Shown here in pieces: positions 38,238 through 62,260 of a stretch of 64,000 bases of DNA. Both the position numbers and the translations under genes were made by a program. Every line of letters starts with the position of its first letter. The stretch's first letter is position 1. This stretch comes from a bacterium (GTDB lineage: Bacteria > UBA8248). The stretch covers positions 960,001 through 1,024,000 of the forward strand of contig OY843592.1 in the NCBI GenBank assembly GCA_963692865.2, written 5' to 3'. Under the pieces are notes generated by a model. The model was not told the origin of the DNA. It did not search any database and worked only from the letters and a program-made list of their open reading frames with translations.

Positions 38238-38253
38238 CTCAAGAGCGTAGGGG

Positions 38254-40206: not shown

Positions 40207-40252
40207 AGTTTTTGGATATGGCTGAACCAATGCTCCGTGGAGGATATATCGG

Positions 40253-42295: not shown

Positions 42296-42329
42296 GACGA
42301 GCAAAGGCGAGATTCACTCCCGCTTTGAG

Positions 42330-42640: not shown

Positions 42641-42770
42641 TTGTGAGGCTTTTTCATCGGGCTTTCCCCTCGGGAAGCACGACCCCACATGGAAGGATTT
42701 CGAATTATTTCTGTGCTTGCCGGAAACTTTCGATGGGCTTGCGGCCTGTCATGAACGAAGAGGTGGAGAG

Positions 42771-44060: not shown

Positions 44061-44062
44061 CC

Positions 44063-46123: not shown

Positions 46124-46130
46124 GCAACCT

Positions 46131-46434
46131 CGGACAGGCGCAGGGGCCTGTCCGCTACAAAACCACCCCCCCCTTAACAGGGGGATAAAGGCGATACTCG
46201 CCGACGAGGAAGTGCAAGAAAAGCCCCAATTCCTTGGCTCGGTGAATAGAGCCGACAGGGGGATGGCGGAGAATCACTCCCCCTCAAGGGGGGAGTGAAC
46301 TTCAAAAGCGTCTGCGCAACTCAAAATTGCTTCCCGGAGGTTTTTCAACAACCCCTGACAAGGGGGGGGGTGGGGGTCGAACGCGATCGGGGAGGGAGCG
46401 TTCGCTGCCCTTGACGGGGCTTTTTCCACACCCC
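46131..46434. repeat. Intergenic cluster of REP hairpin, CCCCC..GGGGG palindromes and IS-like ends
   Basis: REP 46131-46159; cactccccctcaaggggggagtg 46275-46297; ends at 46339-46355 and 46418-46434. Confidence 0.7.
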
Positions 46435-46534
46435 CCGGATCGGGCCTCCATGACACTCCGAGCACAATGAATTACAATTCCTCCACAGATCGAACCCGGC
46501 CAATAGAGACCTGATTCTTCGGGAGGATACCAGG

Positions 46535-47923
46535 ATGCCTGAGTCAGCCGATTATCTTCTAAGCGGGGGAACCGTCATCACGGTGGATGAGGAGCGCCGC
46601 ATTATCCGCGACGGCGCAGTCGCCATACGGGGAGACCGGATCGCCGCCGTCGGAAAGGCGGAGGAGTTGAGCCGGGAATTCACCGCCGGGCGCACGATTG
46701 ACGCAAAGGGCAAGCTCATCATGCCCGGTTTCGTGAACTCCCACATGCATTTCTACCACACCATGCACCGGGGGCTGGCTCCGGAAAATCTCGGAGGCAT
46801 GCCGTGGTCCGACTACGTGCACAGATACATCGCCACGGTCCTCACGCCCGAGGACGAGATATACGGCGGGCTGACGATTCTCCTGGAAACCTTAAAGGCG
46901 GGCACCACCACTTTTCTGGAGGCGGGCTCCTACAACCCGGCGGCGGTCATCGAGGGAATCTCGCGCATCGGCATGCGCGGCCTGATGGGCAGGCGCTCCT
47001 TCGACGATGAGCTTCTGGGTCACAGCATGCTTCTGGAAGATACCGAGACCTGCCTCAAGGAAAATCTCGCCTTCCTGGAAAAGTACAAGGACGGCTACAA
47101 CGGCGGGTTGATCAAGGCGTGTGTGGATGTCGTCGGGCTCGGCCGCTGTTCGGACAAGCTGTATATCGAATCGAAGAAGATGGCGGATGATTACGGGACC
47201 ACCCTGAACTTTCACCTTGCGGCCATGTTCGAGGAATTGACGGCTACGCGCATGCGGTATGGCCGCCGTCCCGTCGAGCATATGTATCATCTGGGCGTGC
47301 TCGGGCCGAATACGGTTCTCGTACACATGATTCACGTGAGCGAGCGGGAAATCGACATGCTGGCCGAAAAAGAGGCGCGGGTGATCCACTGCCCCTCGAC
47401 GGCGCTCAAGATTTCCTACGGCAACGCGGCGTTCGCAAGGTTTCCGGAGATGCTGGCCAAAGGGGTCACCGTCGGTATCGGGAGCGACGCTTCGGACTGC
47501 TCGAACTACGCCGACATGATTCGCGTCATGTACCTCGCCGGCGTGCTGCCGAAGGATTATCGCTACGACCCCGACGCCGGCTCCGCGGAGACGGCCATCG
47601 AAATGGCCACCATCAACGGGGCGCGCGCCATCGGAATGGACCATGAAATCGGTTCGCTCGAGGTCGGCAAGAAGGCGGACGTGATCATCATCACCATGAA
47701 GCGGCCGGAGTGGTACCCGCTCTACAGCGAAGTGCAGAACCTCGTGTATTCCGCCTCGGGCGATTCGGTGGAGACGGTGTTCATCGACGGGAAAATCATC
47801 ATGGAAGACCGCCAGGTGAAGACGGTGAATGAGGAGGAGATCCTGGAAAAATGCCAGGAATGCGCGGCGGGAATCCTCATGAGGAGCGGCGTGGAAGTAC
47901 CGGGCAAGTGGCCAATCCTGTGA
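46535..47923 (+). CDS. Amidohydrolase (Atz/Trz/SAH-deaminase-like)
   Basis: MPGFVNSHMH, GTTT, HCP, GSD, ATINGA, GSLEVGKKAD. Confidence 0.9.
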   Translation: MPESADYLLSGGTVITVDEERRIIRDGAVAIRGDRIAAVGKAEELSREFTAGRTIDAKGKLIMPGFVNSHMHFYHTMHRGLAPENLGGMPWSDYVHRYIATVLTPEDEIYGGLTILLETLKAGTTTFLEAGSYNPAAVIEGISRIGMRGLMGRRSFDDELLGHSMLLEDTETCLKENLAFLEKYKDGYNGGLIKACVDVVGLGRCSDKLYIESKKMADDYGTTLNFHLAAMFEELTATRMRYGRRPVEHMYHLGVLGPNTVLVHMIHVSEREIDMLAEKEARVIHCPSTALKISYGNAAFARFPEMLAKGVTVGIGSDASDCSNYADMIRVMYLAGVLPKDYRYDPDAGSAETAIEMATINGARAIGMDHEIGSLEVGKKADVIIITMKRPEWYPLYSEVQNLVYSASGDSVETVFIDGKIIMEDRQVKTVNEEEILEKCQECAAGILMRSGVEVPGKWPIL

Positions 47924-48287
47924 CAATCCCGTTCGGTCTGAGGAGAAACATCAGGAGAGGAATTACAGAGTTGCCGCACCGGGTTTTCCTCTTGTGCAAG
48001 ACGAATTCATTGTGAAGCTAAAATAATAGAGCGGATTGCGGACCCGCTTCTCAATGAATTTCGAGAACGATTTTGGGAAGAAGAGCCTGAAACTCTTTAT
48101 GACATGGGTAAATCCGAGTGATTTTGGGTCATATATCCCCAAATTTGAACGAGATAGCGAGAATGACGAACTGTACACGCATTTCCATATCTAAACGGCG
48201 AAAAGCTCCCGTCCCCAAAACGGCTGGAAACTCGAGAGATTTTCCAAGCCATTTGGAATTTTTTGTCAGGCGACTGCGCGTGAATGC

Positions 48288-49076
48288 TCAGACGATCGAA
48301 TGGAATTTGCCACCGTCGACGTTGATCGTCGCTCCCGTGATGTAGCCCGCGTGTACCGACGCCAGGAACACCGCCAGCCCCGCCACTTCCTCGGGAGCGC
48401 CGAAACGTCCGAGGGGAATCTGTGATTCACGTGCCCGCCGCATCTCGTCGATCGACATCCCGCGTTCTTCGGCGAGTTGCTCCGTCATCCAGTCTTGCAT
48501 GGGCGTATCGATCTGCCCCAGACAGATCGTGTTCACCAGGATATTGTCTTTGACAAGCGCCTGGGAAAGTCCCTTGCTCAGGCCCAATAGCGCCGCGTTC
48601 GTCGTGCTTCCCCCCAGAACGCCGGGTAGGGGCTCCTTGCCGGTTCCTCCGATCATGTTGATGATCCGTCCGCCGTCTTGTTTTTTCATGAAGCCCGCCG
48701 CCTCGCGCGAGATCACGAGATAGCCGACGATCTTCGTGTCCACGGTCTTTCGTATCTGCGCCGGCGTCAGCGAGGAGAGCGTACTCGGCGCCGCGCGGCC
48801 GGCGTTGTTCACGAGGATGTCCAGCCGCCCGAACGTCTCGACCACGCGAGACGCCAGCCCGGACGCTTCCTCCTCCACGCCGATGTCCGCACGAAGGGAG
48901 AGACCCGCGCCGCCTTGTTCCTCGACCAGCTCCAAAGTGGCGTCCAGACGGGCTTGATCCCGACCGCAGAAGGCGACCCTCACGCCCTGGTCCGCCAGAG
49001 CCAGTACCGTCGCCTTGCCGATTCCGCTCGTTCCTCCGGTGACGAGAGCAACCTTCCCCTCAAGCCCCATGTCCAT
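48288..49076 (-). CDS. Atypical short-chain dehydrogenase/reductase
   Basis: TGGTSGIG, LVNNAG, YITGATINVDGG; GSTTN in place of YxxxK. Confidence 0.88.
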   Translation of the reverse strand: MDMGLEGKVALVTGGTSGIGKATVLALADQGVRVAFCGRDQARLDATLELVEEQGGAGLSLRADIGVEEEASGLASRVVETFGRLDILVNNAGRAAPSTLSSLTPAQIRKTVDTKIVGYLVISREAAGFMKKQDGGRIINMIGGTGKEPLPGVLGGSTTNAALLGLSKGLSQALVKDNILVNTICLGQIDTPMQDWMTEQLAEERGMSIDEMRRARESQIPLGRFGAPEEVAGLAVFLASVHAGYITGATINVDGGKFHSIV

Positions 49077-49190
49077 TGCCAATCCTCATCGCTGGTGAAT
49101 GAACCATCGTTTTCTTCCGGTGGAAGAGAAAGGGCGGCTCTGGATAAAGGCGCCCGGGACGGCGATGCGGCGAAGAGCGCACAACGCTCT

Positions 49191-50297
49191 CTATTCCAGA
49201 ACGATTTTCCCCACGCCGTCCTTCCGGATGATCCGGGTATCGAACTCCGCCGAGAGCCTCTCCACGAGGTCGATCACCTCTTCGGCTCTCTCCCCTTCCA
49301 CCAGGCCGGAATTGCCCGCATCGTCAATCAAGGCCGGCACGAAGCCCAGGTCCGCCGCCCCGTCCTTACCGACCGTGAGTTCAAAGAGGGCCGTCTGCCT
49401 CGGCATGCGCGTCTTGATGAGTTCCGGCGTCATCACGCCGCCGTAGGAGAGTTCGGGGCTTCCGACATCGGGCAGTTCGTGGAAGATGAAATTCCCGATT
49501 CCGTAGAGGATCGGTTTTCCCTTGTATATCTCGACCGCCTGAAGGGTGTGGGAATGATGCCCCAGAACCACGTCCGCGCCCGCGTCCACGAGCGCGCGGC
49601 CGACGCACGTCTGGTATTCCGCCAGGTCGTAGCGGCTCGCCAGCCCCCAGTGACCGGCGATGATCACGATGTCCGCCTCGCGCTTCGCCGCCGCCACGAC
49701 TTTCTGCATGCGCGTGATATCGGCCTGGAGCGGAAAGGTTTTCACCGGGGGGGGCGTCCCGGGCTGTTCCTGTGTTCTCGGGCTCGGCTCCAGGACGAAG
49801 GCGGAAAAGATATGGATGGGTGCCAAGCCGGGGCGCTCCTCGCCCGCGGAGCAGCCGAGCGGAAGGGTGGAGGCGTAACCCAGGAAAGCCACGCGGACGC
49901 CTGCCTTCTCGATGATGGCCGGCGCGTACGCTTCTTCCAGATTCCGGCCCGCCCCCACGCGCCGGACCCCCTTCGCATCGAGAAGAGAGAGGGTGTCGAA
50001 AAGCGCGTCGTAGCCGTAGTCGAGCATGTGATTGTTGGCGAGGGTGACGACGTCCACCCCCATCTCGTCCAGCTCGTCGATCAGGGAGGGATGGGAGCGC
50101 AGGAACGTGTATTTCTCCGCCGGATAGCCCCTCTCGGAATACGGACTCTCCAGGTTGATGAACGTCATGTCGGCCCCCGCCATGCGCTCGAACAGGGCGC
50201 AGACGGGTTCCGCTTCCGGCTCTCCCGGGCGAGGAAGCTTCTGGCCGATGAACACGTCCCCGGCCAACGCGATGGAAACCATCCCTTCGTTGGACAT
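49191..50297 (-). CDS. CapA (PGA_cap) family metallophosphoesterase-fold protein, copy 2
   Basis: AGDV, NLES, ANNHMLDYG, HWG, GHHSH, YGIGNF. Confidence 0.9.
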   Translation of the reverse strand: MSNEGMVSIALAGDVFIGQKLPRPGEPEAEPVCALFERMAGADMTFINLESPYSERGYPAEKYTFLRSHPSLIDELDEMGVDVVTLANNHMLDYGYDALFDTLSLLDAKGVRRVGAGRNLEEAYAPAIIEKAGVRVAFLGYASTLPLGCSAGEERPGLAPIHIFSAFVLEPSPRTQEQPGTPPPVKTFPLQADITRMQKVVAAAKREADIVIIAGHWGLASRYDLAEYQTCVGRALVDAGADVVLGHHSHTLQAVEIYKGKPILYGIGNFIFHELPDVGSPELSYGGVMTPELIKTRMPRQTALFELTVGKDGAADLGFVPALIDDAGNSGLVEGERAEEVIDLVERLSAEFDTRIIRKDGVGKIVLE

Positions 50298-50312
50298 CTC
50301 GTCTCCCTCCTA

Positions 50313-51395
50313 TTACATCAATGAGGCCGCTTTTTCTTTGAGCCTCACCAGGCCCCGGCCACCTTCCAGCTCTATCTTCGTTCCGTATCTCACCGAGGAG
50401 CCGGACACTTCTCCCAGGATCCGCGCCGCTTCCTCCCGCTCGGCGAGGCGCGGGTGGCCGGATGCGTCCAGAACGAGCGGCGCGAGCGCAAGCTCGCGCA
50501 CTCCCTCCGCCCCTAAGCGGGCCTCCACCAGGAGTTCGTCTTTCGACATGAAATCGTACACGTTCCGGGACATGCCTTCGGGAAGCTCGTGGAACAGGAA
50601 ATTGCTCACGCCGTAGACGATCGGCGTGCTCCCGGCCACTTCCACCGGCTGGATGCAATGCGCGTGGTGGCCGACGATGAGGTCTGCGCCCGCCGCGGCG
50701 AGAGCGTGCCCGGCGTCTTGCTGGTAATCCATGAGGGCGCTCACGTTCGGCAACCCCCAGTGGGGCAGGACGACCACGATATCGGAGGAGCGTTTCGCCT
50801 CGCGCACCGCGTTCTGTAGGGTTCGGACGTCATCGGGGGAGGCGAAAGTCATGGCGGGAGGCGGCGTGCCCGGCTGCTCCTGGGTCCGCGCACTCGGCTC
50901 GACCACCCAGGCCGTGAAGACGTGCAGCGGGTTCACGCCCGGCCTGCCCTCTCCCGCAGCACTTCCCAGGGGAAGCGTGGCCGCACACGTAAGAAAAGCC
51001 ACGCGGATGCCCTTAGCCTCGAGGACGAGCGGACGCGACGCTTCCTCGATGTCTCGTCCCGCCCCCACAAAGGGGATTCCTTCGCTTCCAAGAACCTCCA
51101 GGGTGTCCGTGAAGGCGTCGGGGCCGTAGTCGAGCATGTGGTTGTTCGCGATCGTGACGCAATCGACCCCCAGGTGATGCAGGTCTTCCGCGCGCTCGGG
51201 CGCCGCGCGCATGTGGACGATCTTCTCGGCCGGCGCGCCCCGCCTCGAGAGCGGCATCTCCAAGACGCACACCGAAAGATCCGCCGCCCGGAGCTTGTCG
51301 AGGACGGCTTCCAGGCCGGGTTCATCCCGGGGGAGCGGGCGGTTGACCCAGAAGTCCCCCGCGACAGCCAGGGTGATCGCATCGGCTGCGCTCAT
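50313..51395 (-). CDS. CapA (PGA_cap) family protein, copy 1
   Basis: AGDF, VLEM, ANNHMLDYG, HWG, GHHAH, YGVSNF. Confidence 0.9.
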   Translation of the reverse strand: MSAADAITLAVAGDFWVNRPLPRDEPGLEAVLDKLRAADLSVCVLEMPLSRRGAPAEKIVHMRAAPERAEDLHHLGVDCVTIANNHMLDYGPDAFTDTLEVLGSEGIPFVGAGRDIEEASRPLVLEAKGIRVAFLTCAATLPLGSAAGEGRPGVNPLHVFTAWVVEPSARTQEQPGTPPPAMTFASPDDVRTLQNAVREAKRSSDIVVVLPHWGLPNVSALMDYQQDAGHALAAAGADLIVGHHAHCIQPVEVAGSTPIVYGVSNFLFHELPEGMSRNVYDFMSKDELLVEARLGAEGVRELALAPLVLDASGHPRLAEREEAARILGEVSGSSVRYGTKIELEGGRGLVRLKEKAASLM

Positions 51396-52792
51396 CGCTT
51401 TTTACCCATCCGCAGGAACCGCCCGTCCGTGCGCCTGAGCCGGGCGATTCGCTCAAGCGCCCGGTCTACCTGCTGCGGGCAGGTGCCGATGTAGCTTTCC
51501 GGTTTCGTGACCTCGTCGATTTCCTCAGGAGAAAGGTGCTTTCGCGCGACCGGGTTCTCGAGGAGGCATTCCTTGAGCGATCGTCCCTCTTCCCTCGCCA
51601 GCTGGGCGGCGTCATGGCAGATGGTATGGGCTTCGACCTTTCGCTTCGTCTTCTGGTAGAGGCGCAGCATCACCGCTTCGGTCATGGTGAGCTCTCGTTG
51701 AAGTTCGAGATTGCGCCGCATCGCTTTCTTGTCGACGACGAGGCCGCCGTAAATATGCTTGGCCGCCGCGATAGCGGATGACGCCAGACCGAAGCTCTCG
51801 GCGATTCGCGAGAATTCCACGGCGTAGCGGCTCGCGTCGCGCTCGTGCTGCTGCTGGACGTCCATCATGGCGAGCGCGTTCGTCCGCGAGAGTTTGGCGA
51901 GTCCTTCCTGCCATTCACTCGTCTCGGGATTGCGTTTGTGGGGGAAGGTGCTGCTGCTGTGCTGGTGTTCGATGTCCCAAGGCTCCGCCACCTCGGCCAC
52001 TTCTGTCCGCTGGAGGTCGCGGAGGTCCATCCCCGCTTCCCCCAGCGTCGAATTGATCAGCGCGAGAATGTTGAGCAATTCCGCAAAACGGTCCGTCCGG
52101 TGATGCATGCTCATATAGGGGACATGGAGCGCCAGCCGCCTGGCCACCAGGGTTTCCATCCGCCGGGTGGTTTGAAGGTCGCTCAGGTAGACGAAAGTGG
52201 ACTGGGCGCCGGTTCCGGAGGAGACGTTCGCGTAAAACAGCCGCTTGCTGCACTCCTTCAACCGCTCGATGTGATCCCGGATCTCGCTGGAAAGAATCGC
52301 GATCTTCTGGCCGTATGTGACGGGCGAGGCCTGCTGGCCCTCCGTTCGACCGGCCATGACGGTGGCGCGGTGACGCCGGGCCAGACGGACGAGGATGGCC
52401 TCAAGTTCTCGAAGCTCTCCCAGCAGCAGGACGTAGGACTCGCGGATCTGCAGCGTCAGACCGCCGTCGAGGATGTCCTGGGTCGTCGTTCCGAGATGGA
52501 AGTATTCCCCTTCCGGCCCCGCCACCTTCGCGAAAGCATGAACCAGCGAGACGATCCAGTGGCGCGCCTTCTCGAACTCGCGGAAGACGAGGAGGGGAGT
52601 GACCTTCTTCGCGTCGCAACCGCGCACGATGGCCCTGGACGCCCATTTCGGAATCATCTTCAGTTCCCCTTGCGCCCCGGCGATGGCCGCCTCCACGTCG
52701 AGCCATTTCTGGACCATGTTCTCTTCGGTCCAGACAGCCCGCATCTCGGGCGTGGCGTAATAATCACGAAGCAACAGGCACTGATCTTTCAT
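51392..52792 (-). CDS. Adenylosuccinate lyase/fumarate-lyase superfamily protein
   Basis: HLGTTTQDI, MAGRT, SSSTFPHKRNP signature, HERD. Confidence 0.9.
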   Translation of the reverse strand: MKDQCLLLRDYYATPEMRAVWTEENMVQKWLDVEAAIAGAQGELKMIPKWASRAIVRGCDAKKVTPLLVFREFEKARHWIVSLVHAFAKVAGPEGEYFHLGTTTQDILDGGLTLQIRESYVLLLGELRELEAILVRLARRHRATVMAGRTEGQQASPVTYGQKIAILSSEIRDHIERLKECSKRLFYANVSSGTGAQSTFVYLSDLQTTRRMETLVARRLALHVPYMSMHHRTDRFAELLNILALINSTLGEAGMDLRDLQRTEVAEVAEPWDIEHQHSSSTFPHKRNPETSEWQEGLAKLSRTNALAMMDVQQQHERDASRYAVEFSRIAESFGLASSAIAAAKHIYGGLVVDKKAMRRNLELQRELTMTEAVMLRLYQKTKRKVEAHTICHDAAQLAREEGRSLKECLLENPVARKHLSPEEIDEVTKPESYIGTCPQQVDRALERIARLRRTDGRFLRMGKKR

Positions 52793-52842
52793 TTCTTCTC
52801 CGCGTTTTTGCGTTCATTAGAGGAATGAATGGAACCGAAAGC

Positions 52843-54228
52843 TCAATCCAGCGTTGGCTGGGCAAAACGGCCGCTGCCCGGCGGGACCACCACTTCTCCG
52901 TCCCTGGCGATCAGCTCCCCGCGCAGGAAGGTCATCACCGGCGCTCCCACGAAAGTCCTGTTGGCGAAGGCCGTGTAATTCGCCTTGCTTTTCCCCTTCA
53001 CCGGATCGACGAACACGGTCCGCTCCATATCGACCACCACGAGATCGGCGTCCGCCCCCGGGCGGATCGTCCCCTTTTCCGGGAACAGGCGGAAAATCCG
53101 CGCCGGCGCCTCGCACAAACGCGCAACGAGCGTCGGCAGCGTCAGGCGACCCTGGTTCACTTCGTTCAGCATCGAAGGCAGAAAAATTTCCAGGCCGGGT
53201 CCGCCGGGCGGGGCGATCCAGATGTTTTCGTTGTTTTTGAGCTCGTTGATCTGGGGGGCGTGGTCGGTTCCCATGGTGTCGATGGTCCCGTCCAGGAACC
53301 CTTCGCGCAGGGCGTCGCGGTCGGCGGCCGTCTTGACGGGCGGGCTGAATTTCCCCCATGAACCCACCGCGTGGAGGTCCTTGTCGCACAGGAGCAGGTT
53401 GCCCGGCGCAACTTCCGAGGTGATCTTCGGATTTTTTTTCTTCGCGTTGCGGATGAGCTGGACCGCCTCCGCGCCGATGACGTGACAGATATGCAAACGG
53501 GCGCCCGTGGCCGTGGACAAGGTGAGGGCCTCGAAGACCGCGAGGTCTTCGGCGAAATTCGGCCGGCTCAGACGCCAGGCGTCGATGTCCGGCTTCATCG
53601 TCTCCTTGCTTCGCTCGGTGAAGAGTTCGAGGATCGGATTCGATTCGGCGTGGATTCCAATCTGTCCATCGAAGCCCGCGATTTCCTCGAACAGCAGGAA
53701 GAGCTTGTCGATGTCGACGGTAATGTATTTTGCGAAATCTTCCTTGAAGGCCCCCGTCACGGCGGTGAAAATCTTGTAACCGATGGCGCCCAGCTCCTGG
53801 AAGTGATGGAGTTCCTTCCGGTTCTGATCGCAGGCCCAGGCGTAGAGGGCAATATCCGCGTACGTGCGATTTTCAATGAGCGCCTTTCGTTCGATAAAAT
53901 CCTCAGGACTCAGAACGTCGGGTATGCCGTTTGGCATCTGCATCACCGTCGTCACGCCGCCGACGGCGGCGCAGGCGGTTCCGGTGGTGAAGTCCTCCTT
54001 TTCGGATTCCCCCATGTCGCGCAGGTGTACGTGGGGGTCGATGATTCCCGGCAGAAGATATTTCCCCCCGAGGTCGATCTCCTCTGCGCCTCCCCCGGGA
54101 AGAGCGCCTTCTTCGAGCGAAGCGACCCGCCCGTCGCGCACGGCCACGTTGGCGCGGCGAATCTCTTCGGTCGTCACGACATTCGCGTTCATCAAGTTGT
54201 AATCACGGTTCACGTCTTGGGGCGTCAT
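52843..54228 (-). CDS. Dihydroorotase/allantoinase-family cyclic amidohydrolase
   Basis: DPHVHLRD, GGVTT..QMPN, YKIF, HAE, HICH, KFSPP, TDHAP. Confidence 0.9.
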   Translation of the reverse strand: MTPQDVNRDYNLMNANVVTTEEIRRANVAVRDGRVASLEEGALPGGGAEEIDLGGKYLLPGIIDPHVHLRDMGESEKEDFTTGTACAAVGGVTTVMQMPNGIPDVLSPEDFIERKALIENRTYADIALYAWACDQNRKELHHFQELGAIGYKIFTAVTGAFKEDFAKYITVDIDKLFLLFEEIAGFDGQIGIHAESNPILELFTERSKETMKPDIDAWRLSRPNFAEDLAVFEALTLSTATGARLHICHVIGAEAVQLIRNAKKKNPKITSEVAPGNLLLCDKDLHAVGSWGKFSPPVKTAADRDALREGFLDGTIDTMGTDHAPQINELKNNENIWIAPPGGPGLEIFLPSMLNEVNQGRLTLPTLVARLCEAPARIFRLFPEKGTIRPGADADLVVVDMERTVFVDPVKGKSKANYTAFANRTFVGAPVMTFLRGELIARDGEVVVPPGSGRFAQPTLD

Positions 54229-56231
54229 CGCTGTTCCTCTCGTGATGGGTAGGAAGACGTAACCTCATCCGCTCCCGCTCCGCGCCGGAGACGCAAGGAA
54301 ACACCTGTGGATCTCCAGCGTTGCCAGGCGACCACGGACAGGAGCCCAATGAGGCCGATTCCGTTCGCTGAAATCGAATAAGGGATCAGCAAAATCCCGG
54401 AGGCCACCAGGAGAATGCGCTCCACGATGTGGAGCTCCCGCAGCATTCTTCCCTGTACGCCATAAGTGAAGGCCAGGATCCCCAGGAGGGAGGTCCCGAC
54501 AGCGTAAACCACATCAAAGGGGCTTCCGATAAAAACGAGGCCGGGGCTGTATACGAACATGAACGGGACGATGAACGCCGCCAGCCCAATGCGTATCGCC
54601 AGGAATCCCGTCCGCAGCGGAGGCGCCTTGGCGATGGCGGCGCCCGCGTACGCAGCCAGTGCGACCGGCGGCGTGATCGCCGAAATAATGCCGGAATACA
54701 GGACGAAGAGGTGCGCCGATATCTTGGGCACGCCGGCCTTGACCAGGGAAGGGGCAATCAGCACGGCCAGGATAATGTAGGCCGGCATCGTGGGCATCCC
54801 CATCCCGAGCAGAATGCTGGTCACCATGCCGATCACCAGCATCGGAAGCAGCGCTTCATGAGCCAGTTCGAGGAGAGCGAAAGAAACCTTCGCCCCCAGG
54901 CCCGTCAGCGTGAAGATGCTCACCACGATCCCCGCACACGCGCAGGCGAGCGCGACCTGCAGCGTGGCCATCGTTCCCGCGCGAAGCGCGTTGAGAATCT
55001 GCCGGGGCGACAAGCGGCTGGCGGCTTTCAGGGAACTGACGGCGACCGTGGCCACAATCGCCCAGAAACCCGATTTCGTCGGGGACCAGTGCATGTACAT
55101 CAACATGAATACGAGGATGACCGGGGGAGCGAGAAAGGGCCAGCCTTCCGAGAGGAGACGCAGCGGCCTGGGGAGTTCCGAACGATCCATCCCCCGAAGC
55201 CCCAGGCGCACGGCTTCCAGGTCTACGGCAATGAACACCGCGACGTAATAGAGGATGGCCGGCAGCAGCGCCATGACGATAATCTCTCTGTATGTGACGT
55301 GGATCATCTCGATCATGATGAAAACGGCCGCACCCATGATGGGGGGCATGAACTGTCCGCCGGTCGAGGAAACCGCCTCGACCGCAGCGGCGAAGGTGGG
55401 CTGGTACCCGAGACGCTTCATCATCGGTATGGTGAACGTCCCCGTGCCCACGACGTTGGCCGTGGCGCTGCCCGAGATCGTGCCGAAAAGCGTGCTCCCC
55501 ACAACCGCGACTTTCGCCGGTCCGCCCCGCACCCGGCCGAAAAGCCCGAAGGCGAGATCGATGAAAAACCGGCCCGCTCCGGTCTCCTGAAGAAAAGCCC
55601 CGAAAGTGATGAACAGAATGACGAACGTCGCTGAAACGCCGATCGGAAACCCGTAAATACCTTCCGTGCTGGTGTAGGAGTGCTGCAGAATCCGCCCCCA
55701 GTCGTAACCGCGGTGCCCGAAGATACCCGGCATGTTCGGGCCCCAGTAGGCGTAGATCACGAACGCCACGGCGACCAGAGGCAGCGTCCAGCCGATGACC
55801 CTCCGGGTCGCTTCGAGAACCAGGATGATGGCGACGATTCCGAGGAGCATGTCCGTTACATTCGGGTTCCCGTCCCGGAAGGTGAGAACATGGTATTGAT
55901 CGATGATGTAGAGGCCGATGGTGATGCTTCCGATAACGAAAACGGTGTCGAGAAGCCGACCGAAAACATAGTACCGCTCCTTCGTCGAGGTCGGGTAAAG
56001 AAGGTATGTGAGAATCAGGATCGGACTCAAGTGAATCGAACGCTGAATGAGCGCTCCGTACGCACCGGCGAAACCCGTATAGAGGTGAAAAACCGCCACC
56101 GCAATGGCCAGCCAGGTGATGACCGGGTTGAGAAAACGCTCGAAGGCGTTGTCCGGGCGGGCCCGGCCGTGAACGATTACCCCCGCCTCTTCCGCATCCG
56201 GCGATTGCTTCGGTTCGCCATTCGCATCCAC
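54225..56231 (-). CDS. TRAP transporter fused (4TM/12TM) permease
   Basis: LEATRR, GGPAK, GTISGSATAN, MPPIMGA, ITPPVALAA. Confidence 0.93.
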   Translation of the reverse strand: MDANGEPKQSPDAEEAGVIVHGRARPDNAFERFLNPVITWLAIAVAVFHLYTGFAGAYGALIQRSIHLSPILILTYLLYPTSTKERYYVFGRLLDTVFVIGSITIGLYIIDQYHVLTFRDGNPNVTDMLLGIVAIILVLEATRRVIGWTLPLVAVAFVIYAYWGPNMPGIFGHRGYDWGRILQHSYTSTEGIYGFPIGVSATFVILFITFGAFLQETGAGRFFIDLAFGLFGRVRGGPAKVAVVGSTLFGTISGSATANVVGTGTFTIPMMKRLGYQPTFAAAVEAVSSTGGQFMPPIMGAAVFIMIEMIHVTYREIIVMALLPAILYYVAVFIAVDLEAVRLGLRGMDRSELPRPLRLLSEGWPFLAPPVILVFMLMYMHWSPTKSGFWAIVATVAVSSLKAASRLSPRQILNALRAGTMATLQVALACACAGIVVSIFTLTGLGAKVSFALLELAHEALLPMLVIGMVTSILLGMGMPTMPAYIILAVLIAPSLVKAGVPKISAHLFVLYSGIISAITPPVALAAYAGAAIAKAPPLRTGFLAIRIGLAAFIVPFMFVYSPGLVFIGSPFDVVYAVGTSLLGILAFTYGVQGRMLRELHIVERILLVASGILLIPYSISANGIGLIGLLSVVAWQRWRSTGVSLRLRRGAGADEVTSSYPSREEQR

Positions 56232-56301
56232 TGCACGACTCCCTTGCGGTGGCCGGCGCCCCCGCCCTCAGGCGGAGGCGCCGAAATGCCCGTACGACAA
56301 A

Positions 56302-57270
56302 TTATTTGATGCCCTTTTCCTTGAAGTAACGCGCGGCGCCGGGATGAACGGGAATGGGAATGCTCCCGGCGGAGCCGGGGAGTTTGTACTTCGACCCGGC
56401 GCGGTGAATGGCGGCGAGCTCATCGGTGTGCTCGAGGACCGTTTTCGTCACCGCGTAGACCGTCGCGTTGTCCATGTCCGCGTGGGTGATGATGATGGTC
56501 GCCGACGCCATCGCCCCGACGTCTCCCTTCATGCCGCCGTAAGTGCCCTTGGGAATGCTGGAAGGCGACCAGTATGGATGCAGCTTGCTGATTTTCTTCA
56601 TGTCCGCCATGGAGATGGGGACCAATCTGACGTCGTGCGTCGAAGTGATGTCCTTTACCGCACCGCCCGGAATGCCGGCGAGCTGGATGGTTCCGTCCAC
56701 GGTTCCGTCCTTCAGCGCCGCAACGGCTTCCGTCTGGGTCAGATGATCCGTTCGGGCGAACTGCTTGGTGCTGATCCCCAGGACTTCGAGCATCGCCACG
56801 CCCATCGCCGCCGTGGAGCTTCCCGGCTGTCCGATGGAGATCCGCTTTCCTTTATAGTCATACACACTCTTAATTCCCGACTTCCTGAGCGTCACGAAAT
56901 GCTGGATGCTGGCGTGGCCGCTCATCAGGGCGCGGAGCTTGTATTTTTCTCCCGGCTTGAATCGCCCGCCCCCCTTCACCGCAAAGTAGGCGGCGTCCGG
57001 GGTCGTCAGACCAAAATCGGCTCTCTTGGTTCCGATGAGGCGCGTATTGCCGAAACCGCCTCCCGTGACCTCCGCGTTCGCCCGCATCCCCGGAATGTAT
57101 TTGGACAGGATCTTGGCCATTCCGGTTGCGACTACGATGTACGTTCCGCCCGAAGCGCCGCCGGCGATGGTGACGAACTTCTTGGCAGCCTGGGCGGAGG
57201 AAATCGTCATCGCCAAAATGGCGATGACCACCACTGCGAACTTAATGAACGTCTTCATTGCGCGCATCAT
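56302..57270 (-). CDS. TAXI-family TRAP solute-binding protein
   Basis: Signal peptide, GGASGGTY, VTGG..N, IPKGTY, IPVHPGAARYFKE. Confidence 0.92.
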   Translation of the reverse strand: MMRAMKTFIKFAVVVIAILAMTISSAQAAKKFVTIAGGASGGTYIVVATGMAKILSKYIPGMRANAEVTGGGFGNTRLIGTKRADFGLTTPDAAYFAVKGGGRFKPGEKYKLRALMSGHASIQHFVTLRKSGIKSVYDYKGKRISIGQPGSSTAAMGVAMLEVLGISTKQFARTDHLTQTEAVAALKDGTVDGTIQLAGIPGGAVKDITSTHDVRLVPISMADMKKISKLHPYWSPSSIPKGTYGGMKGDVGAMASATIIITHADMDNATVYAVTKTVLEHTDELAAIHRAGSKYKLPGSAGSIPIPVHPGAARYFKEKGIK

Positions 57271-57389
57271 TTTCTCCCCTCCTTGTTTGGGTAGACTAGG
57301 AACTTTCCTTGACCTCCCGGATGGATGATGAAGCAACGATAAGACTTCATATTAAAAAGTTTTAAACAGATTCCCCGAAAACAGGATTT

Positions 57390-58169
57390 CTATGCTTCAG
57401 GTTCCCTCCAGCCCAGGGATGCCGAAACCTCCCGAGCGGCTCCGATGACCTGGGCGGCAAGGATTTTCCGGTTCGAGTTTCCGATCCGGTGAACCGGGGC
57501 CGAGAGCGTCAACGAAGCCGCAACGGCTCCTGGTTCATCGAACACCGGTGCGGAAATCGCCCTGGCCCCGACGATGAACTCCTGGTCGCTGTACGCGTGG
57601 CCCTTTTCACGAATCTCCTTGAGCTCGTTTCTTAATTTGACGGGATCGGTGATCGTATTTTCTGTCGCCCTCGACAGTTTCTGCTGCATGATCGTCTCGA
57701 TGTTCTGATCCGGCAAAAAGGCGAGCAGGGCTTTCGACGCCGCCCCAACGTGCAAGGGCCGCACCTCTCCCACGAAAAAACGAGTGATCATCGATTGGCG
57801 GCTTTCGATGCACTCGATGCAAATGGTCTCCCGACCCGATTTGATACACAGGAAAGTCGTTTCTCCCGTTTCCGAGGTAAGCCTTCTCATGACGGGAACC
57901 GCAAGTTCGCAAAGGTTTCCATTCTGTCCGTTCCGGGAACTGTTTTTCGAGAGGAGGGAGAGGGAAGGCCCCAGCCGGTATTTTCCGTATTCGGAGGAAG
58001 CATCCACGAAGCCCCTCGTCTGGAGGGTCTTGAGGAATCGGTAAGTCGTACTTTTGGGAAGTTGGATTTCGGAGGAAAGCTCTTCTACAGATGATGAGCC
58101 GGATCCATGGGCTATTGCCCAGAGGAGATCGATTGCTTTATCTATCGTCTTAAGGGAGGCGGAAGACAT
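57390..58169 (-). CDS. IclR family transcriptional regulator
   Basis: IDKAIDLL, LPKSTTYRFLKTL, TGET, GAASKALLAF, AISAPV. Confidence 0.93.
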   Translation of the reverse strand: MSSASLKTIDKAIDLLWAIAHGSGSSSVEELSSEIQLPKSTTYRFLKTLQTRGFVDASSEYGKYRLGPSLSLLSKNSSRNGQNGNLCELAVPVMRRLTSETGETTFLCIKSGRETICIECIESRQSMITRFFVGEVRPLHVGAASKALLAFLPDQNIETIMQQKLSRATENTITDPVKLRNELKEIREKGHAYSDQEFIVGARAISAPVFDEPGAVAASLTLSAPVHRIGNSNRKILAAQVIGAAREVSASLGWREPEA

Positions 58170-58184
58170 TTATTTTCTCAAATA

Positions 58185-58203
58185 ATAAGAAATATATTCT
58201 TAT
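58185..58203. promoter_or_regulatory. AT-rich palindrome upstream of iclR, possible operator
   Basis: ATAAGAA-atata-TTCTTAT, 15 bp upstream of the ATG. Confidence 0.45.
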
Positions 58204-58282
58204 ATTTCAGTAAATATATGCCCCGTTGCCGTTCATGTCAACCGATGATTGGCTTGTTCCAACAACGTATCCTGGTCGCGTA

Positions 58283-58527
58283 AGAAATTCCGGCCCGCCC
58301 GAAAACTCATTGGCGCGGGGGCGTTCTTCCCTCCGCCAACGACTCCGGGATGACGGCGAATGCGCGGGTCAATTTCGGGCGAGGAGAAGTTGTTGAAAAA
58401 ATCCCCCGAAAAACAGGGAGCGGATTTCAACCCATAGATGCGGCCCGCGCCGGGGCTAGAGGGCATCCTTCGATACGAGGTTTCGTCGCTACTCAGGATG
58501 AGGCGAAGAGGACTTTTTAACAGCCCC
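58283..58527 (+). repeat. About 120-bp structured repeat copy 2 fused to a MITE-like element
   Basis: Matches 22253-22373; ends GAAGTTGTTGAAAAAATCC (58386) and (rc) GGGGCTGTTAAAAAGTCC (58510-58527). Confidence 0.8.
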
Positions 58528-61208: not shown

Positions 61209-61210
61209 GG

Positions 61211-62218
61211 TCAGGCCGGCTCGTGCGCGGGCCGGCTTGGCGGCTGCCCGCGAAGAATCGCCATGGCGTCGAGGTAGTACGCCAGAAACTGCGTCATCAT
61301 GGACACGGCGTATACGGCGAGGAAACCCGCCATCAGATACTTGACGTAGAGGCCGTACCCGCTCTGGGACGTCTCGAAGTAAAGCAGCGGGCTGTTGATG
61401 ACGGACGCCTTGCCCGCCATGCCGACGGCGAGGATGGTCCAGCACAGCGGCACGCCCAGCAACATGGACCCCCACGCGTTGACCAGGGCCTTGCGCCGCT
61501 CGGTGAAATGCGTGTAGAGCACGTCCACGCGCACGTGGCCTCCGGCGACAAGGGTATGGGCGCTGGCAAAGAGGAACAGCGCCGCGTACCAGAAACGCAC
61601 CAGATCGCCCATGAAAGCCTGCTCGTAGGAGAAGATGAAGCGCGCGATGACGATCTGGAACTCGGCGACGACGACGAGCAGCGCGAGCCAGATGAAGTCG
61701 AGCCCCCGCCTGAAGCATGCCACCACGGCCGCCGCGAGCATGAGCGGCAAATGCACGTAGACGCCGCGAAAGCTCGATACGCCCAGTTTCTGGGCCAGCG
61801 TCTTGCCGAACACCGCGGGCAGCAGCCCTTCCACGCGCAGGAACGATATGACCCCGTCGGCGATGCCGACGAAAAACGTCGTCCAGAACGCCGCAGATAT
61901 GATATAGGCGGTGATGGAACTGAGCAGCACTGCGTCGGACGCAAACGGCCTCTCCCGGTTCCTGAGCGCGAAGACGATGACGGCGAGGACCGGAAGGACG
62001 TAGCCTGCGAGCTGCAGCCATGCCAGGAACGCCGCTCCTACGCCTGAGGACGCGCCGCCCAAGATGCGCGCGACGCCCGGCCAGCCATGCCAGAAGACAA
62101 GATAGTTGTTGAAGAGGAAAACGAACATGGTCGCGGCCAGCGACAACGCGAACGCGCGATAAAGCGCGTCCGCGATGCCGGGCCGTCTTTCGTCCTCGTT
62201 TAACCGATCCTCAGTCAC
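61211..62218 (-). CDS. dctQ: TRAP small permease DctQ with extra N-terminal helices
   Basis: GHVRVDVLY motif; lies between dctP and dctM. Confidence 0.85.
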   Translation of the reverse strand: MTEDRLNEDERRPGIADALYRAFALSLAATMFVFLFNNYLVFWHGWPGVARILGGASSGVGAAFLAWLQLAGYVLPVLAVIVFALRNRERPFASDAVLLSSITAYIISAAFWTTFFVGIADGVISFLRVEGLLPAVFGKTLAQKLGVSSFRGVYVHLPLMLAAAVVACFRRGLDFIWLALLVVVAEFQIVIARFIFSYEQAFMGDLVRFWYAALFLFASAHTLVAGGHVRVDVLYTHFTERRKALVNAWGSMLLGVPLCWTILAVGMAGKASVINSPLLYFETSQSGYGLYVKYLMAGFLAVYAVSMMTQFLAYYLDAMAILRGQPPSRPAHEPA

Positions 62219-62260
62219 CGTGGAAAACCATAGTGGTCCGTCACACTACGCGCCGGGCAT

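Follow-up and report, generated by a model that had tools for sequence, protein, structure and literature searches.

The window analyzed here, a stretch of 64,000 nucleotides, carries on its minus strand eight co-oriented and tightly spaced open reading frames (48288-58169), which raise the question of whether they encode a new catabolic route, one that, as proposed in an earlier note, would open a cyclic ureide or imide derived from aspartate, release fumarate and process the remainder. Pfam and NCBIfam searches confirmed the gene order, families, coordinates and 4-bp overlaps described in that note, and all the motifs it mentioned were reread in the translations and numbered. The features are the following:

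48197..58285, minus strand: whole cassette, a block of ~10 kb kept as one piece, with flanks varying among genomes
58213..58241, minus strand: sigma-70-like promoter candidate, TTGACA-17-TATATT (11/12), 44 nt upstream of the IclR start
57390..58169, minus strand: IclR-family transcription regulator, 259 aa (Pfam IclR_C 136 bits, HTH_IclR 46 bits)
56302..57336, minus strand: TAXI-family TRAP solute-binding protein (NCBIfam TIGR02122 273 bits, cut-off 84)
54225..56231, minus strand: fused TRAP permease of DctQ/DctM type, 668 aa (TIGR02123 682 bits, cut-off 321)
52843..54228, minus strand: cyclic amidohydrolase with a binuclear metal centre, DHAPQ clade, 461 aa (Pfam Amidohydro_1)
51392..52792, minus strand: Glu-clade lyase (GRTE for GRTH) of the aspartase/fumarase superfamily, 466 aa (Lyase_1 and ADSL_C)
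50313..51395, minus strand: CapA1, cytoplasmic PGA_cap protein, 360 aa (PGA_cap 207 bits)
49191..50297, minus strand: CapA2, paralogue of CapA1, 368 aa (PGA_cap 227 bits)
48288..49082, minus strand: atypical SDR of BacG/YwfH type (adh_short 149 bits)
48030..48048, minus strand: terminator-like hairpin candidate with a T-rich tail, 240 nt past the end of the SDR gene, beyond the conserved block

The top NCBIfam model for the IclR protein was BhcR, at 175 bits and far under its cut-off of 350. The TAXI binding protein matched solved TAXI proteins at ~150 bits; its true start is probably one of the ATG codons at residues 23-27 of the reading frame, and a hydrophobic segment at residues 30-48 (19-residue Kyte-Doolittle mean of 2.26) constitutes its signal peptide. 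The SDR probably starts at the ATG at 49076, as its relatives begin at residue 3. Permease and amidohydrolase genes (54225-54228), as well as lyase and CapA1 genes (51392-51395), overlap by 4 bp, and the remaining gaps measure 15 to 108 bp, the 108-bp gap preceding the SDR gene. Promoter-like sites in the region showed no excess over shuffled sequence (2 against a mean of 2.2), so that only its location within the conserved block favours the promoter candidate; terminator-like sites likewise showed none (12 against a mean of 10.7), and the hairpin is a weak call. The neighbours on both sides of the cassette are further TRAP-linked catabolic clusters.

The eight genes have been inherited or have moved as a single unit. 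In blastn comparisons the block (48197/48288..58274/58285) was recovered at 89-93% identity in loci L012-L016, where homology ends at the block edges though these loci run 1.7-4.5 kb and 2.9-6.8 kb further, and its flanks represent at least four different genomic contexts. Past the SDR stop, the conserved block ends within ~90 bp in 4 of the 5 loci with both flanks, and exactly at the stop in the fifth (L013). All 7 close loci were collinear over the part they hold, 5 with all eight genes and 2 cut by contig ends. The cassette was present in 10 of the 23 genomes of the genus (sponge-type Nitrospinota) and absent from 13; lyase, amidohydrolase and twin CapA were found in the same 10, and the presence or absence of CapA1, lyase and amidohydrolase agreed in 51/51 genomes searched. 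Since the 10 carriers are congeneric and share 89-97% identity, collinearity among them carries little independent weight. The full eight-gene cluster occurred in none of the 28 other genomes of the phylum, and was found only in this genus.

One account of such a block would be that it holds the usual genes for making pyrimidines and purines (pyrC and purB), which chance to adjoin a transporter. The cassette amidohydrolase indeed passes TIGR00857 (pyrC_multi, a subfamily_domain model) with 307 bits against a cut-off of 279, and the lyase scores 298 bits on the purB model. However, the lyase lies below the purB cut-off of 326, as it does for every NCBIfam cut-off, and is 32% identical to the genome's own purB, which was found at C1:2864664-2865893 (TIGR00928 501 bits, cut-off 326; motif GRTH), and a separate DHAPH-type dihydroorotase (pyrC) is encoded at C1:2934307-2935506 (TIGR00857 406 bits, cut-off 279). 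The cassette enzymes are thus not the pyrC and purB of this genome, and absence of the cassette from 13 genus genomes argues further against a housekeeping identity, which is ruled out as far as sequence allows and to which we assign a negligible probability.

Clade-specific replacements apart, the catalytic residues typical of each family are present in all four enzymes. The amidohydrolase retains a complete set of metal ligands (H66, H68, K152, H193, H249 and D322) within the motifs H66-V-H-L-R70, M98-P-N100, GYKIF (Lys152) and D322-H-A-P-Q326. It shares HVHLR(D/E), MPN and DHAP with the Bacillus anthracis dihydroorotase, whereas L-hydantoinase displays HVHIID, MPITF and DHGGH at the same places; nevertheless, its top solved relative is the L-hydantoinase 1GKR (276 bits; dihydroorotases reach 197 bits). 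Its description as dihydroorotase-like stands for the HVHLR and MPN residues but not for overall similarity. The protein falls inside a DHAPQ clade (39/39 tips, support 0.999), and in the lyase (G148-R-T-E151, S279-SSTFPHKRNP) Glu151 is the mark of a Glu clade (57/57 tips, support 0.92); both deviations define clades on these trees and are not chance mutations.

The solved relatives of the lyase were, by score, 3C8T (228 bits), a 'fumarate lyase' without assigned function; the trans-aconitate decarboxylase Tad1 (223 bits); the 3-carboxymuconate lactonizing enzyme CMLE (1RE5, 200 bits); and adenylosuccinate lyases (179 bits or less). With Tad1 and CMLE outranking the last, the premise that this superfamily eliminates fumarate from N-substituted aspartates proved too narrow here, and C-N cleavage and fumarate release are not a given. 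Within the same cassette, the lyase could instead be a C-O cycloisomerase (CMLE-like, lactone-forming or -opening) or a Tad1-like decarboxylase, acting on an unsaturated or tricarboxylic acid derivative such as an imide, amide or lactam, with no fumarate arising from a C-N bond. This ranking speaks for such chemistry, as does variation at the catalytic-His position in the branch (Asn in Tad1; Glu, Gln or Ser in relatives), and a BacG-type SDR would suit the reduction of an unsaturated acid. The His-type relatives (51% identity; a Clostridia MAG and Moorella) bear on both sides of the question. Upstream of them lie genes for tricarboxylate-type transporters (TctC, TctB and TctA in the Clostridia MAG; TctC and TctA in Moorella), and their neighbourhoods also hold aconitase-like or aconitase-family subunits or MmgE/PrpD genes, which would equally fit tricarboxylate chemistry; directly downstream, however, are the alpha and beta subunits of a class I fumarase and malic enzyme, as expected for a fumarate product, and these genes support fumarate as the product of the family. 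Moreover, the dihydroorotase-type carboxylate-binding Arg and Asn of the partner amidohydrolase fit an aspartate-type product, and fumarate is formed throughout the superfamily according to PMC11880804, with CMLE and now Tad1 as the exceptions. Fumarate release by the cassette lyase is plausible on these comparisons, and the alternative chemistry seems unlikely, albeit the most serious of the competing accounts.

The functional link between amidohydrolase and lyase extends beyond the genus. Four representative pairs of the Glu and DHAPQ clades have longest contigs of equal size (88150, 25340, 18724 and 7763; matched by eye), and such an agreement in contig size was found for 4/56 Glu-type lyase matches, but for 0/54 His-type and 0/9 Gln-type. 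Further, in one Burkholderiales MAG the GenBank accessions lie two apart (HYC46176.1 and HYC46178.1). None of 4 genomes carrying His-type lyase relatives had a close amidohydrolase (E<=1e-60). Against the pairing, for P0233, an amidohydrolase relative of 76% identity, there was no matching lyase among the matches listed (nothing between 97% and 57% identity). Co-occurrence of both clades on contigs from at least four mutually unrelated metagenomic lineages indirectly suggests a conserved module. Conservation of the cluster thus holds outside the genus for this pair, and for the full eight genes in a single genus.

The remaining enzymes are the CapA pair and the SDR. CapA1 and CapA2 (44% identity) are cytoplasmic, as previously proposed: they lack a hydrophobic segment, their largest 19-residue Kyte-Doolittle means being 1.42 and 1.03, against 2.26 in the TAXI binding protein. 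The genome (97% complete) encodes six CapA paralogues and gave no match to PgsB, because of which these paralogues cannot make poly-gamma-glutamate. CapA has been proposed as an epimerase (PMC8179263), and the AlphaFold model of CapA1 (pLDDT 88) matched MslH with a TM of 0.86, the next folds reaching at most 0.49. Seven of eight key MslH residues, with roles taken from PMC10406935, are kept: D14, E46, N85, H86, D89, H212 and H246 correspond to MslH D11, E44, N87, H88, D91, H259 and H295. Conversely, the MslH calcium ligand His261 is replaced by Gly214, and the general CapA motifs HWG and GHHxH stand in place of HSH and GHGPH; given these motifs and Gly214, the cassette proteins may still be hydrolases. 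A distant pair, P0124 (66%) and P0128 (43%), on contigs of the same size (5307), suggests the twin arrangement elsewhere. Prediction of a CapA1-CapA2 complex scored 0.59 (best of 3 controls 0.00; runs agreeing in at least 85% of contacts; partner pLDDT of at least 88), above a mark reached by 58/80 solved complexes and 2/110 mismatched pairs, of which 7 solved complexes and both mismatches passed at 0.60 or less. This weakly supports a predicted complex, and the pass may reflect mere likeness, because MslH itself acts as a dimer.

The SDR keeps TGGTSGIG and NNAG, and GKEP...N replaces Ser...Tyr...Lys, with G158 and N162 at the classical Tyr and Lys positions. Its best solved relatives, 6JH7 (160 bits) and YwfH/BacG (3U49, 135 bits), show the same replacements. 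The absence of YxxxK is accordingly real, but usual in the BacG/YwfH subfamily rather than an oddity of a single gene; to judge from sequence, the protein is not dead and belongs to these atypical SDRs, with an intact nucleotide-binding motif.

Whether these three proteins act in the same route as the module is a separate matter, since twin CapA and SDR joined to the amidohydrolase-lyase pair were found in this genus only. Transporter, amidohydrolase and lyase might form one pathway, with the CapA pair and SDR separate and co-inherited by chance, for instance with a metallohydrolase (or phosphoesterase) and a reductase that serve a different compound. Outside the genus, no equal contig sizes tied the CapA match table to those of lyase and amidohydrolase, and at 80 metagenome loci with CapA homologues (<=42% identity) none stood beside a lyase or amidohydrolase, because of which a CapA role in the cassette rests on one genus; the 108-bp gap ahead of the SDR gene, the 1 to 7 CapA matches that genomes of this family contain in other contexts and the canonical metallophosphatase-type GHHxH point the same way. 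On the other hand, the overlap of the lyase stop with the CapA1 start implies coupled translation, the block edge lies at or shortly past the SDR stop, and CapA1, lyase and amidohydrolase co-occur or are missing together throughout the genomes searched, so that we consider such a division improbable.

The proposal of a new catabolic route is hence sustained as regards one unit, distinct from housekeeping genes, with a linked amidohydrolase and lyase, and is not sustained as regards wide conservation of eight genes or the superfamily premise; the cassette offers a reasonable starting point for finding a new pathway, with uncharacterised enzyme variants. We judge the chances to be even that it is a self-contained catabolic cassette, probably substrate-induced, for an imported cyclic amide or ureide, and an aspartate-derived cyclic ureide or imide is the substrate class we infer. 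In this scheme, IclR would repress the operon until substrate or product shows up, and the TAXI-TRAP system would import an anionic, carboxylate-bearing cyclic amide or ureide, whose ring the DHAPQ amidohydrolase would open to an N-substituted aspartate or succinate, with Arg70 and Asn100 (dihydroorotase-type) plus Gln326 gripping the carboxylate beside the ring nitrogen. The SS-loop serine of the lyase would then take the beta-proton and the N-substituent would be expelled, with Glu151 where the catalytic His usually stands, giving a nitrogen compound together with fumarate or a substituted form of it. The CapA pair, as MslH-like metal-dependent epimerases, may invert the carboxylate-bearing alpha-carbon of an N-acylated intermediate, letting both stereoisomers reach stereospecific enzymes. 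The BacG-like SDR would use NADPH for a reduction, in the simplest case at a C=C adjacent to a carbonyl, and would thereby form the saturated ring prior to hydrolysis or else process the released remainder.

Dihydroorotase-type and aspartase/fumarase-type reactions are reversible, and CapA is classically tied to a biosynthetic system; the genes could therefore add an amine or ureide to fumarate and close the ring, yielding a cyclic compatible solute or metabolite from a precursor supplied by the transporter. An IclR gene adjoining a high-affinity binding-protein-dependent importer is, however, the usual layout of a catabolic operon, the flanking clusters are also catabolic, and Pfam and NCBIfam searches found no ligase or ATP-dependent enzyme in the block, which leaves biosynthesis or salvage highly improbable. 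Returning to the catabolic reading, a version using all genes would convert an orotate-like unsaturated cyclic ureide into a dihydro ring, to be epimerised, opened to an N-carbamoyl-aspartate type compound and cleaved to fumarate and urea; an orotate-like cyclic ureide as the specific substrate is improbable at best. Urease alpha is encoded elsewhere in the genome, a finding that fits the formation of urea but is not specific to it.

The eight genes between positions 48288 and 58169 of the window, all on the minus strand, bear out the gene order and families that the earlier note had read from the sequence, and the motifs that it had pointed out in the amidohydrolase, the lyase and the SDR were all found on reading the translations.

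Genes of the block (window coordinates, strand, assignment)
57390-58169, minus strand, IclR regulator (Pfam/NCBIfam)
56302-57336, minus strand, TAXI solute-binding protein (TIGR02122, 273 bits, cut-off 84)
54225-56231, minus strand, fused TRAP permease (TIGR02123, 682 bits, cut-off 321)
52843-54228, minus strand, amidohydrolase (ORF and family match)
51392-52792, minus strand, aspartase/fumarase-superfamily lyase (Lyase_1, 120 bits; ADSL_C, 58 bits)
50313-51395, minus strand, CapA1, PGA_cap (207 bits, cut-off 27)
49191-50297, minus strand, CapA2, PGA_cap (227 bits, cut-off 27)
48288-49082, minus strand, SDR (ORF and family match)

Both components of the TAXI-TRAP transporter, i.e., the binding protein and the fused permease, score above their curated cut-offs, and the binding protein carries a signal peptide as judged by hydrophobicity. 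Overlaps of 4 bp join the permease to the amidohydrolase gene and the lyase to the CapA1 gene, the remaining intergenic gaps being of 15 to 108 bp. A promoter-like site with 11/12 matches lies 44 nt 5' of the IclR gene, such sites occurring in the region no more often than expected by chance. Near-identical loci were found in MAGs titled Nitrospinota or Nitrospinaceae, and sponge metagenome-labelled runs contain parts of the block; no RNA run is listed for it.

The amidohydrolase displays the motifs HVHLRD (residues 66-71), MPN (98-100), GYKIF with Lys152, and DHAPQ (322-326), and its binuclear metal ligands (H66, H68, K152, H193, H249 and D322) are all present and aligned with those of dihydroorotases and a hydantoinase. 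Among solved proteins, the L-selective hydantoinase 1GKR is the nearest (276 bits), by a wide margin over dihydroorotases (197) and allantoinases (180); at the three substrate-contact motifs, however, the enzyme resembles the Bacillus anthracis dihydroorotase and not its overall nearest relative, since it matches the former in HxHxR, MPN and DHAP, and differs from the L-hydantoinase in its dihydroorotase-type Arg and Asn.

Substrate-contact motifs of the amidohydrolase and two solved relatives
Block amidohydrolase: HVHLRD / MPNG / DHAPQ
B. anthracis dihydroorotase: HVHLRE / MPNT / DHAPH
L-hydantoinase 1GKR: HVHIID / MPITF / DHGGH

In dihydroorotases, the Arg of HxHxR, the Asn of MPN and the His of DHAPH constitute the triad that binds the substrate carboxylate. 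This triad is incomplete in the block enzyme, which keeps Arg70 and Asn100 and has Gln326 instead of the third residue, His, as do 39/39 members of its clade; a further difference to the Bacillus enzyme is the carboxylated-lysine position (GYKIF), which is Asp there. The DHAPQ motif was present in 39 of the best 120 database matches, the remainder having DHAPH, DHSPF or DHAPY. In the phylogeny, from which two truncated matches were left out, the query and 38 matches formed a single DHAPQ clade (39 tips, FastTree support 0.999), and one DHAPQ stray fell elsewhere. The only pyrC-type model passed by the enzyme is TIGR00857 (pyrC_multi, a subfamily_domain model; 307 bits, cut-off 279); all dihydroorotase equivalog models are failed (e.g., 294 vs 452 bits), and the scores also lie under the curated cut-offs for allantoinase (306 vs 358), D-hydantoinase (243 vs 393) and ErtD (250 vs 600). 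The possibility, raised by the earlier note, that the amidohydrolase and the lyase are the genome's only pyrC and purB is set aside by a separate purB and a separate dihydroorotase encoded elsewhere in the genome. The latter (HVHFRE and DHAPH; TIGR00857, 406 bits) is likelier than the block amidohydrolase to be the genome's pyrC. The genome also encodes argH.

The lyase shares with PurB and argininosuccinate lyase the Lyase_1 and ADSL_C domains, the SSSTFPHKRNP loop (residues 279-289), TTQD and HERD, a likeness under which the expected chemistry would be β-elimination of the N-substituent from an aspartate moiety, yielding fumarate. Conversely, it departs from PurB in having GRTE (148-151) for GRTH, with Glu151 in place of the His that is the catalytic residue in adenylosuccinate lyase, in scoring under the purB cut-off (TIGR00928, 298 vs 326 bits), and in belonging to a clade of its own. 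The genome's true purB reaches 501 bits and has the motif GRTHGMHAEP, its product being 32% identical to the block lyase. Among the best 120 lyase matches, the GRT[H] position is occupied by Glu in 56, His in 54, Gln in 9 and Ser in 1. In a tree with the genome's own PurB as outgroup, the Glu forms and the query were monophyletic (57/57 tips, support 0.92), with the Gln forms (9/9 tips, support 1.0) as their sister group (joint node, 0.938). Thus, Glu151 is an old, clade-defining replacement. Within this Glu clade, H99, TTQD, the SS loop, K286, N288 and HERD are invariant. No match was obtained for the Glu-clade alignment against viral contigs, and plasmid relatives in the search were all at most 39% identical.

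The earlier note had taken fumarate release to be the known chemistry of the superfamily. This stands for most members; according to the Tad1 report, CMLE and now also Tad1 are the exceptions (PMC11880804), and these are the nearest characterised solved relatives of this branch. In order of score, the solved relatives are 3C8T (an unassigned "fumarate lyase", 228 bits), the trans-aconitate decarboxylase Tad1 (223), CMLE (200) and adenylosuccinate lyases (at most 179). With a decarboxylase and a lactonizing enzyme among the nearest solved relatives, the chemistry of the branch is not fixed by homology. The same report describes Arg360 as critical for Tad1 activity (PMC11880804), and the Tad1 residues have counterparts in the block lyase, namely the SS-loop Ser (S280/S281) and R318 in HERD, the Arg of HER thus being kept; these residues do not discriminate, since they are also present in the genome's PurB. 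Tad1 has Asn where the lyase has Glu151. In contrast to the Tad1 and CMLE/PcaB systems, no itaconate or protocatechuate pathway genes were found near the block, nor any pca genes in the block or its flanks, and the lyase fails the PcaB equivalogs (279 vs 595 and 182 vs 356 bits).

The neighbours of His-type lyases bear on the product as well. In a Clostridia MAG (locus L017, 3416-14159), a His-type lyase of 51% identity is preceded by MmgE/PrpD, a DASS transporter and TctCBA, and followed by the alpha and beta subunits of a class I fumarase, malic enzyme and GntR regulators; in Moorella mulderi (locus L018, 2738-11988), the lyase stands after TctC, TctA and the large and small subunits of an aconitase-family enzyme, and before fumarase and malic enzyme genes like those of the Clostridia MAG. 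This placement of fumarase and malic enzyme immediately after the lyase would be expected if fumarate is the product, the genes upstream being compatible with tricarboxylate chemistry as well. A cyanobacterium with a His-type lyase had unrelated neighbours. The Clostridia and Moorella clusters constitute an uncharacterised carboxylate pathway of their own.

Matching contig sizes and accessions indirectly indicate that the DHAPQ amidohydrolase and the Glu-clade lyase form a conserved core beyond the genus. Comparing the tables by eye, four DHAPQ amidohydrolases and four Glu-clade lyases among the database protein representatives had longest contigs of identical size, pairwise.

Paired representatives (amidohydrolase/lyase) and size of the longest contig
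P0237/P0077: 88150
P0239/P0084: 25340
P0249/P0087: 18724
P0256/P0021: 7763

The four paired lyases are spread across the Glu clade, and none of the 54 His-type or 9 Gln-type lyases showed such a contig match with a DHAPQ amidohydrolase. A Burkholderiales MAG encodes the pair under accessions HYC46176.1 and HYC46178.1, i.e., one gene apart. No close relative of the amidohydrolase (E<=1e-60) was detected in the four genomes with a His-type lyase (Moorella, the Clostridia MAG, the cyanobacterium and a Dadabacteria MAG). A counter-example is the amidohydrolase P0233, 76% identical to that of the block, which has no lyase partner among the lyase matches listed.

The linkage of the other genes was assessed within the genus and phylum. 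A lyase-centred search of genome contigs yielded 11 loci, seven from the same genus and four with His-type lyases. The seven close loci are collinear with the block over what each holds, five having all eight genes and two being cut by contig ends. Nucleotide identity of 89-93% begins between window positions 48197 and 48288 and ends between 58274 and 58285, where it stops though the loci run on for kilobases; the conserved span takes in the promoter region and reaches up to about 90 bp past the SDR stop in 4/5 loci. The flanks correspond to at least four contexts, whose counterparts in the window's genome are scattered at 0.41, 0.94-0.96, 2.21 and 2.33 Mb. Across 51 genomes of the phylum, the lyase (at least 93% identity), the amidohydrolase (at least 91%) and the twin CapA genes co-occur in one set of 10 genomes, which all belong to a single genus (10/23, being missing from the other 13), and none of the three was found in the 28 genomes of other genera, nine of which have only lyase paralogues of 35-38% identity. 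One genome of the genus (G032) carries the cassette twice, with about 140 kb between the copies (C2:638257-643300 and C2:781806-786849). No long direct or inverted repeats, as signs of a mobile element, were found at the block ends. From these boundaries and this distribution, the cassette is accessory and is kept or moved as a whole, which is the best argument for counting the IclR regulator, both CapA genes and the SDR gene as parts of it. Since all carriers are close kin, the collinearity constitutes evidence from one lineage.

Some irregularities were observed among these sequences. In one relative with 16% contamination (G029), the CapA1 match at C2:204405-205485 consists of two overlapping pieces, a possible frameshift. 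One of the comparison loci (L010) has a partial second SDR copy at 7340-7714, 1.4 kb beyond the cassette, which corresponds to the 3' half of the gene and covers residues 143-264 at 98% protein identity. In the window's own genome, two small contigs, C4 (27929-28909) and C7 (10694-12010), repeat at high identity regions of contig C1 containing a CapA paralogue (C1:1205714) and a dihydropyrimidinase-like gene (C1:3752732); these repeats could be assembly duplicates or strain variants, consistent with the contamination estimate of 6.7%.

CapA1 and CapA2 are 44% identical to each other, and among solved proteins their sequences match only the lasso-peptide epimerase MslH (25% identity). The AlphaFold model of CapA1 (pLDDT 88, pTM 0.90) has a TM score of 0.86 to MslH, the best phosphoesterase folds reaching at most 0.49. 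As described in the MslH study, this enzyme needs two His/Asp dyads (H88/D91 and H295/D11) and the Ca ligands E44, N87, H259 and H261 (PMC10406935). Seven of these eight residues are invariant in CapA1, CapA2 and their relatives, i.e., both dyads and three of the four metal ligands: CapA D14, E46, N85, H86, D89, H212 and H246 correspond to MslH D11, E44, N87, H88, D91, H259 and H295, respectively. The eighth, MslH His261, is an invariant Gly214 in CapA; with an additional His244, the general GHHxH motif is complete again. Both proteins fail the MslH equivalog NF038314 (103-112 bits vs a cut-off of 700), and the block, unlike that of MslH, has no peptide-precursor or lasso genes. The MslH substrate is an N-acylated residue with a free alpha-carboxylate, and an N-substituted aspartate presents the same chemical pattern. 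An epimerase function for CapA itself was proposed by the discoverers of MslH (PMC8179263).

The family also includes CapA/PgsA of poly-gamma-glutamate synthesis. However, neither CapA1 nor CapA2 has a hydrophobic segment or membrane anchor, the genes are tandem paralogues within a transporter operon, and PgsB (TIGR04012) had no match in the 97%-complete genome, so these CapA proteins would not make poly-gamma-glutamate. For a CapA1-CapA2 complex, the prediction gives weak support, with a score of 0.59 (best of three controls, 0.00) on a scale whose mark was reached by 58/80 solved complexes and 2/110 mismatched pairs, seven of the 80 and both of these mismatches reaching it at 0.60 or less; the prediction runs have at least 85% of contacts in common, with partner pLDDT of at least 88. 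Since MslH is dimeric, this pass may reflect likeness only. Close relatives of CapA1 are few, with 87-89% identity in the same genus and 66-67% in the representatives P0124 and P0125; P0124 and the CapA2-like P0128 share the size of their longest contig, by which the CapA tandem seems older than the genus. Among 80 metagenome loci with more distant CapA homologues, none had the lyase or amidohydrolase beside them. The genome encodes six CapA paralogues, and each of 41 other genomes of the same family has 1 to 7 CapA matches; ABC-transporter genes lie near the other paralogues of this genome, with several neighbouring ORFs assigned to no family. ESM Atlas matches for CapA1 were only "CapA family protein" clusters, and the titles and abstracts listed for PGA_cap/PF09587 contained no function for cytoplasmic CapA beyond MslH. 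In-frame stops initially suspected in CapA1 of some relatives were rejected, the natural stop lying three codons earlier.

The SDR keeps TGxxxGxG and NNAG, with the classical Tyr replaced by Gly158 and the Lys by Asn162. The earlier note was right that YxxxK is missing, but this is not an oddity: in an alignment of the query and 139 single-domain sequences from the best 150 representatives (n=140), Tyr occupies the classical column in 22/140, and the Lys column has N in 55, R in 50 and K in 29. The protein fits the atypical pattern G(K/R)(E/Q)P with Asn or Arg at the classical Lys column and without the Tyr. By these counts, it is an ordinary representative of an atypical subfamily with many members, and its nucleotide-binding motif is intact. 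Its best solved relatives, with modest scores, are 6JH7 (160 bits) and YwfH/BacG of bacilysin synthesis (3U49, 135 bits), and the three share the same replacements, GKEP...N...K instead of Ser...Tyr...Lys. BacG uses NADPH to reduce a conjugated C=C bond; in contrast to its setting, the block has no bacilysin genes. No relevant literature on YwfH/BacG or 6JH7 was found in a search that lacked most subscription journals.

From the observed gene content, residues and linkage, we infer a series of catalytic steps, for which the reading that we favour, with belief and doubt in equal measure, is that a carboxylated cyclic amide or ureide is imported and then undergoes ring opening and β-elimination, with CapA epimerisation and SDR reduction. 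Uptake would depend on the binding protein; the DHAPQ amidohydrolase would open the ring to an N-substituted aspartate-type acid, from which the Glu-clade lyase would release fumarate and a nitrogen compound by β-elimination; the CapA pair may equalise stereoisomers at the carboxylate-bearing carbon, and the BacG-like SDR may reduce a conjugated double bond before or after the other steps.

The proteins come from superfamilies already known, and the route has a logic similar to that of hydantoin utilisation and iminodisuccinate degradation. The hyu clusters comprise hydantoinase, hydantoin racemase, N-carbamoyl-amino-acid amidohydrolase and a permease; as in these, a binuclear-metal cyclic amidohydrolase would open an imported 5- or 6-membered cyclic ureide, and an accompanying enzyme may equalise stereoisomers. 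Unlike them, the block has no carbamoylase, with the superfamily lyase in its place, and its putative epimerase has the CapA/MslH fold instead of the Asp/Glu-racemase fold. In iminodisuccinate/EDDS degradation, an epimerase and a stereoselective C-N lyase releasing fumarate are combined, so that all stereoisomers of the N-substituted aspartate are consumed, which is the logic proposed here. The epimerase of that system belongs to the MmgE/PrpD family, a gene of which lies near one His-type lyase relative, that of the Clostridia MAG, whereas in the block the CapA pair is the candidate and the lyase comes after a ring-opening amidohydrolase. To our knowledge, the known substrates of that system are synthetic chelators.

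A version employing all the genes, in which an orotate-like ring is reduced, epimerised and opened, and urea released, seems improbable to us. Clostridial reductive orotate degradation uses orotate reductase, dihydroorotase and ureidosuccinase, and the reductase and ring-opening enzyme of the block would mirror the conversion of orotate to dihydroorotate and carbamoyl-aspartate; the block, however, has a lyase instead of the hydrolytic ureidosuccinase and an SDR instead of the flavoprotein reductase. Urease is present in the genome, and a cationic leaving group (guanidine or an alkylamine) would suit the anionic Glu151 at least as well as urea. A further proposal, which we regard as rather unlikely, is that the DHAPQ and Glu-clade enzymes constitute a widespread undescribed two-step route, extended in Nitrospinota by CapA epimerases and an ene-reductase SDR. 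The substrate would then be a carboxylated cyclic ureide or amidine related to dihydroorotate, hydantoin-5-acetate or cyclised guanidinosuccinate, from which, with no carbamoylase involved, fumarate and a small nitrogen compound (e.g., urea or guanidine) would be formed; CapA would be the first of its family to epimerise small molecules instead of peptides or polymers, and the BacG-type ene-reductase would feed in the unsaturated ring. No description of an amidohydrolase-lyase route of the type carbamoyl aspartate to fumarate and urea was found, most subscription journals lying outside the search.

If this proposal is true, two large clades now annotated as "dihydroorotase/allantoinase" and "adenylosuccinate lyase" would be mis-named halves of one catabolic route that supplies a nitrogen compound as well as an intermediate of central carbon metabolism, cytoplasmic CapA proteins, present here without a poly-gamma-glutamate synthetase, would gain their first small-molecule function, and the route would show which organic nitrogen sponge-associated Nitrospinota draw from their host. 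The interest of the cassette depends on finding the substrate, and the module is small enough (two soluble enzymes, rising to four once the CapA pair and SDR are included) to be directly testable in vitro.

TRAP-linked catabolic clusters flank the block on both sides, and about ten more TAXI-type loci were found in the genome by tblastn with the permease and binding protein of the block as queries. On one side, the TAXI-TRAP locus at 35604-47923 (plus strand), convergent with the SDR gene, encodes a binding protein, a GFO/IDH/MocA oxidoreductase, a permease, hydantoinase/oxoprolinase A, a class-III aminotransferase, hydantoinase/oxoprolinase B, and an amidohydrolase whose N-terminal part is imidazolonepropionase-like. 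On the other, the DctP-type system at 58557-63376 (minus strand) has a TRAP binding protein (62261-63376) beside a 1154-aa ORF (58557-62021), which matches DctM in three stretches and is unusually long for a TRAP membrane subunit.
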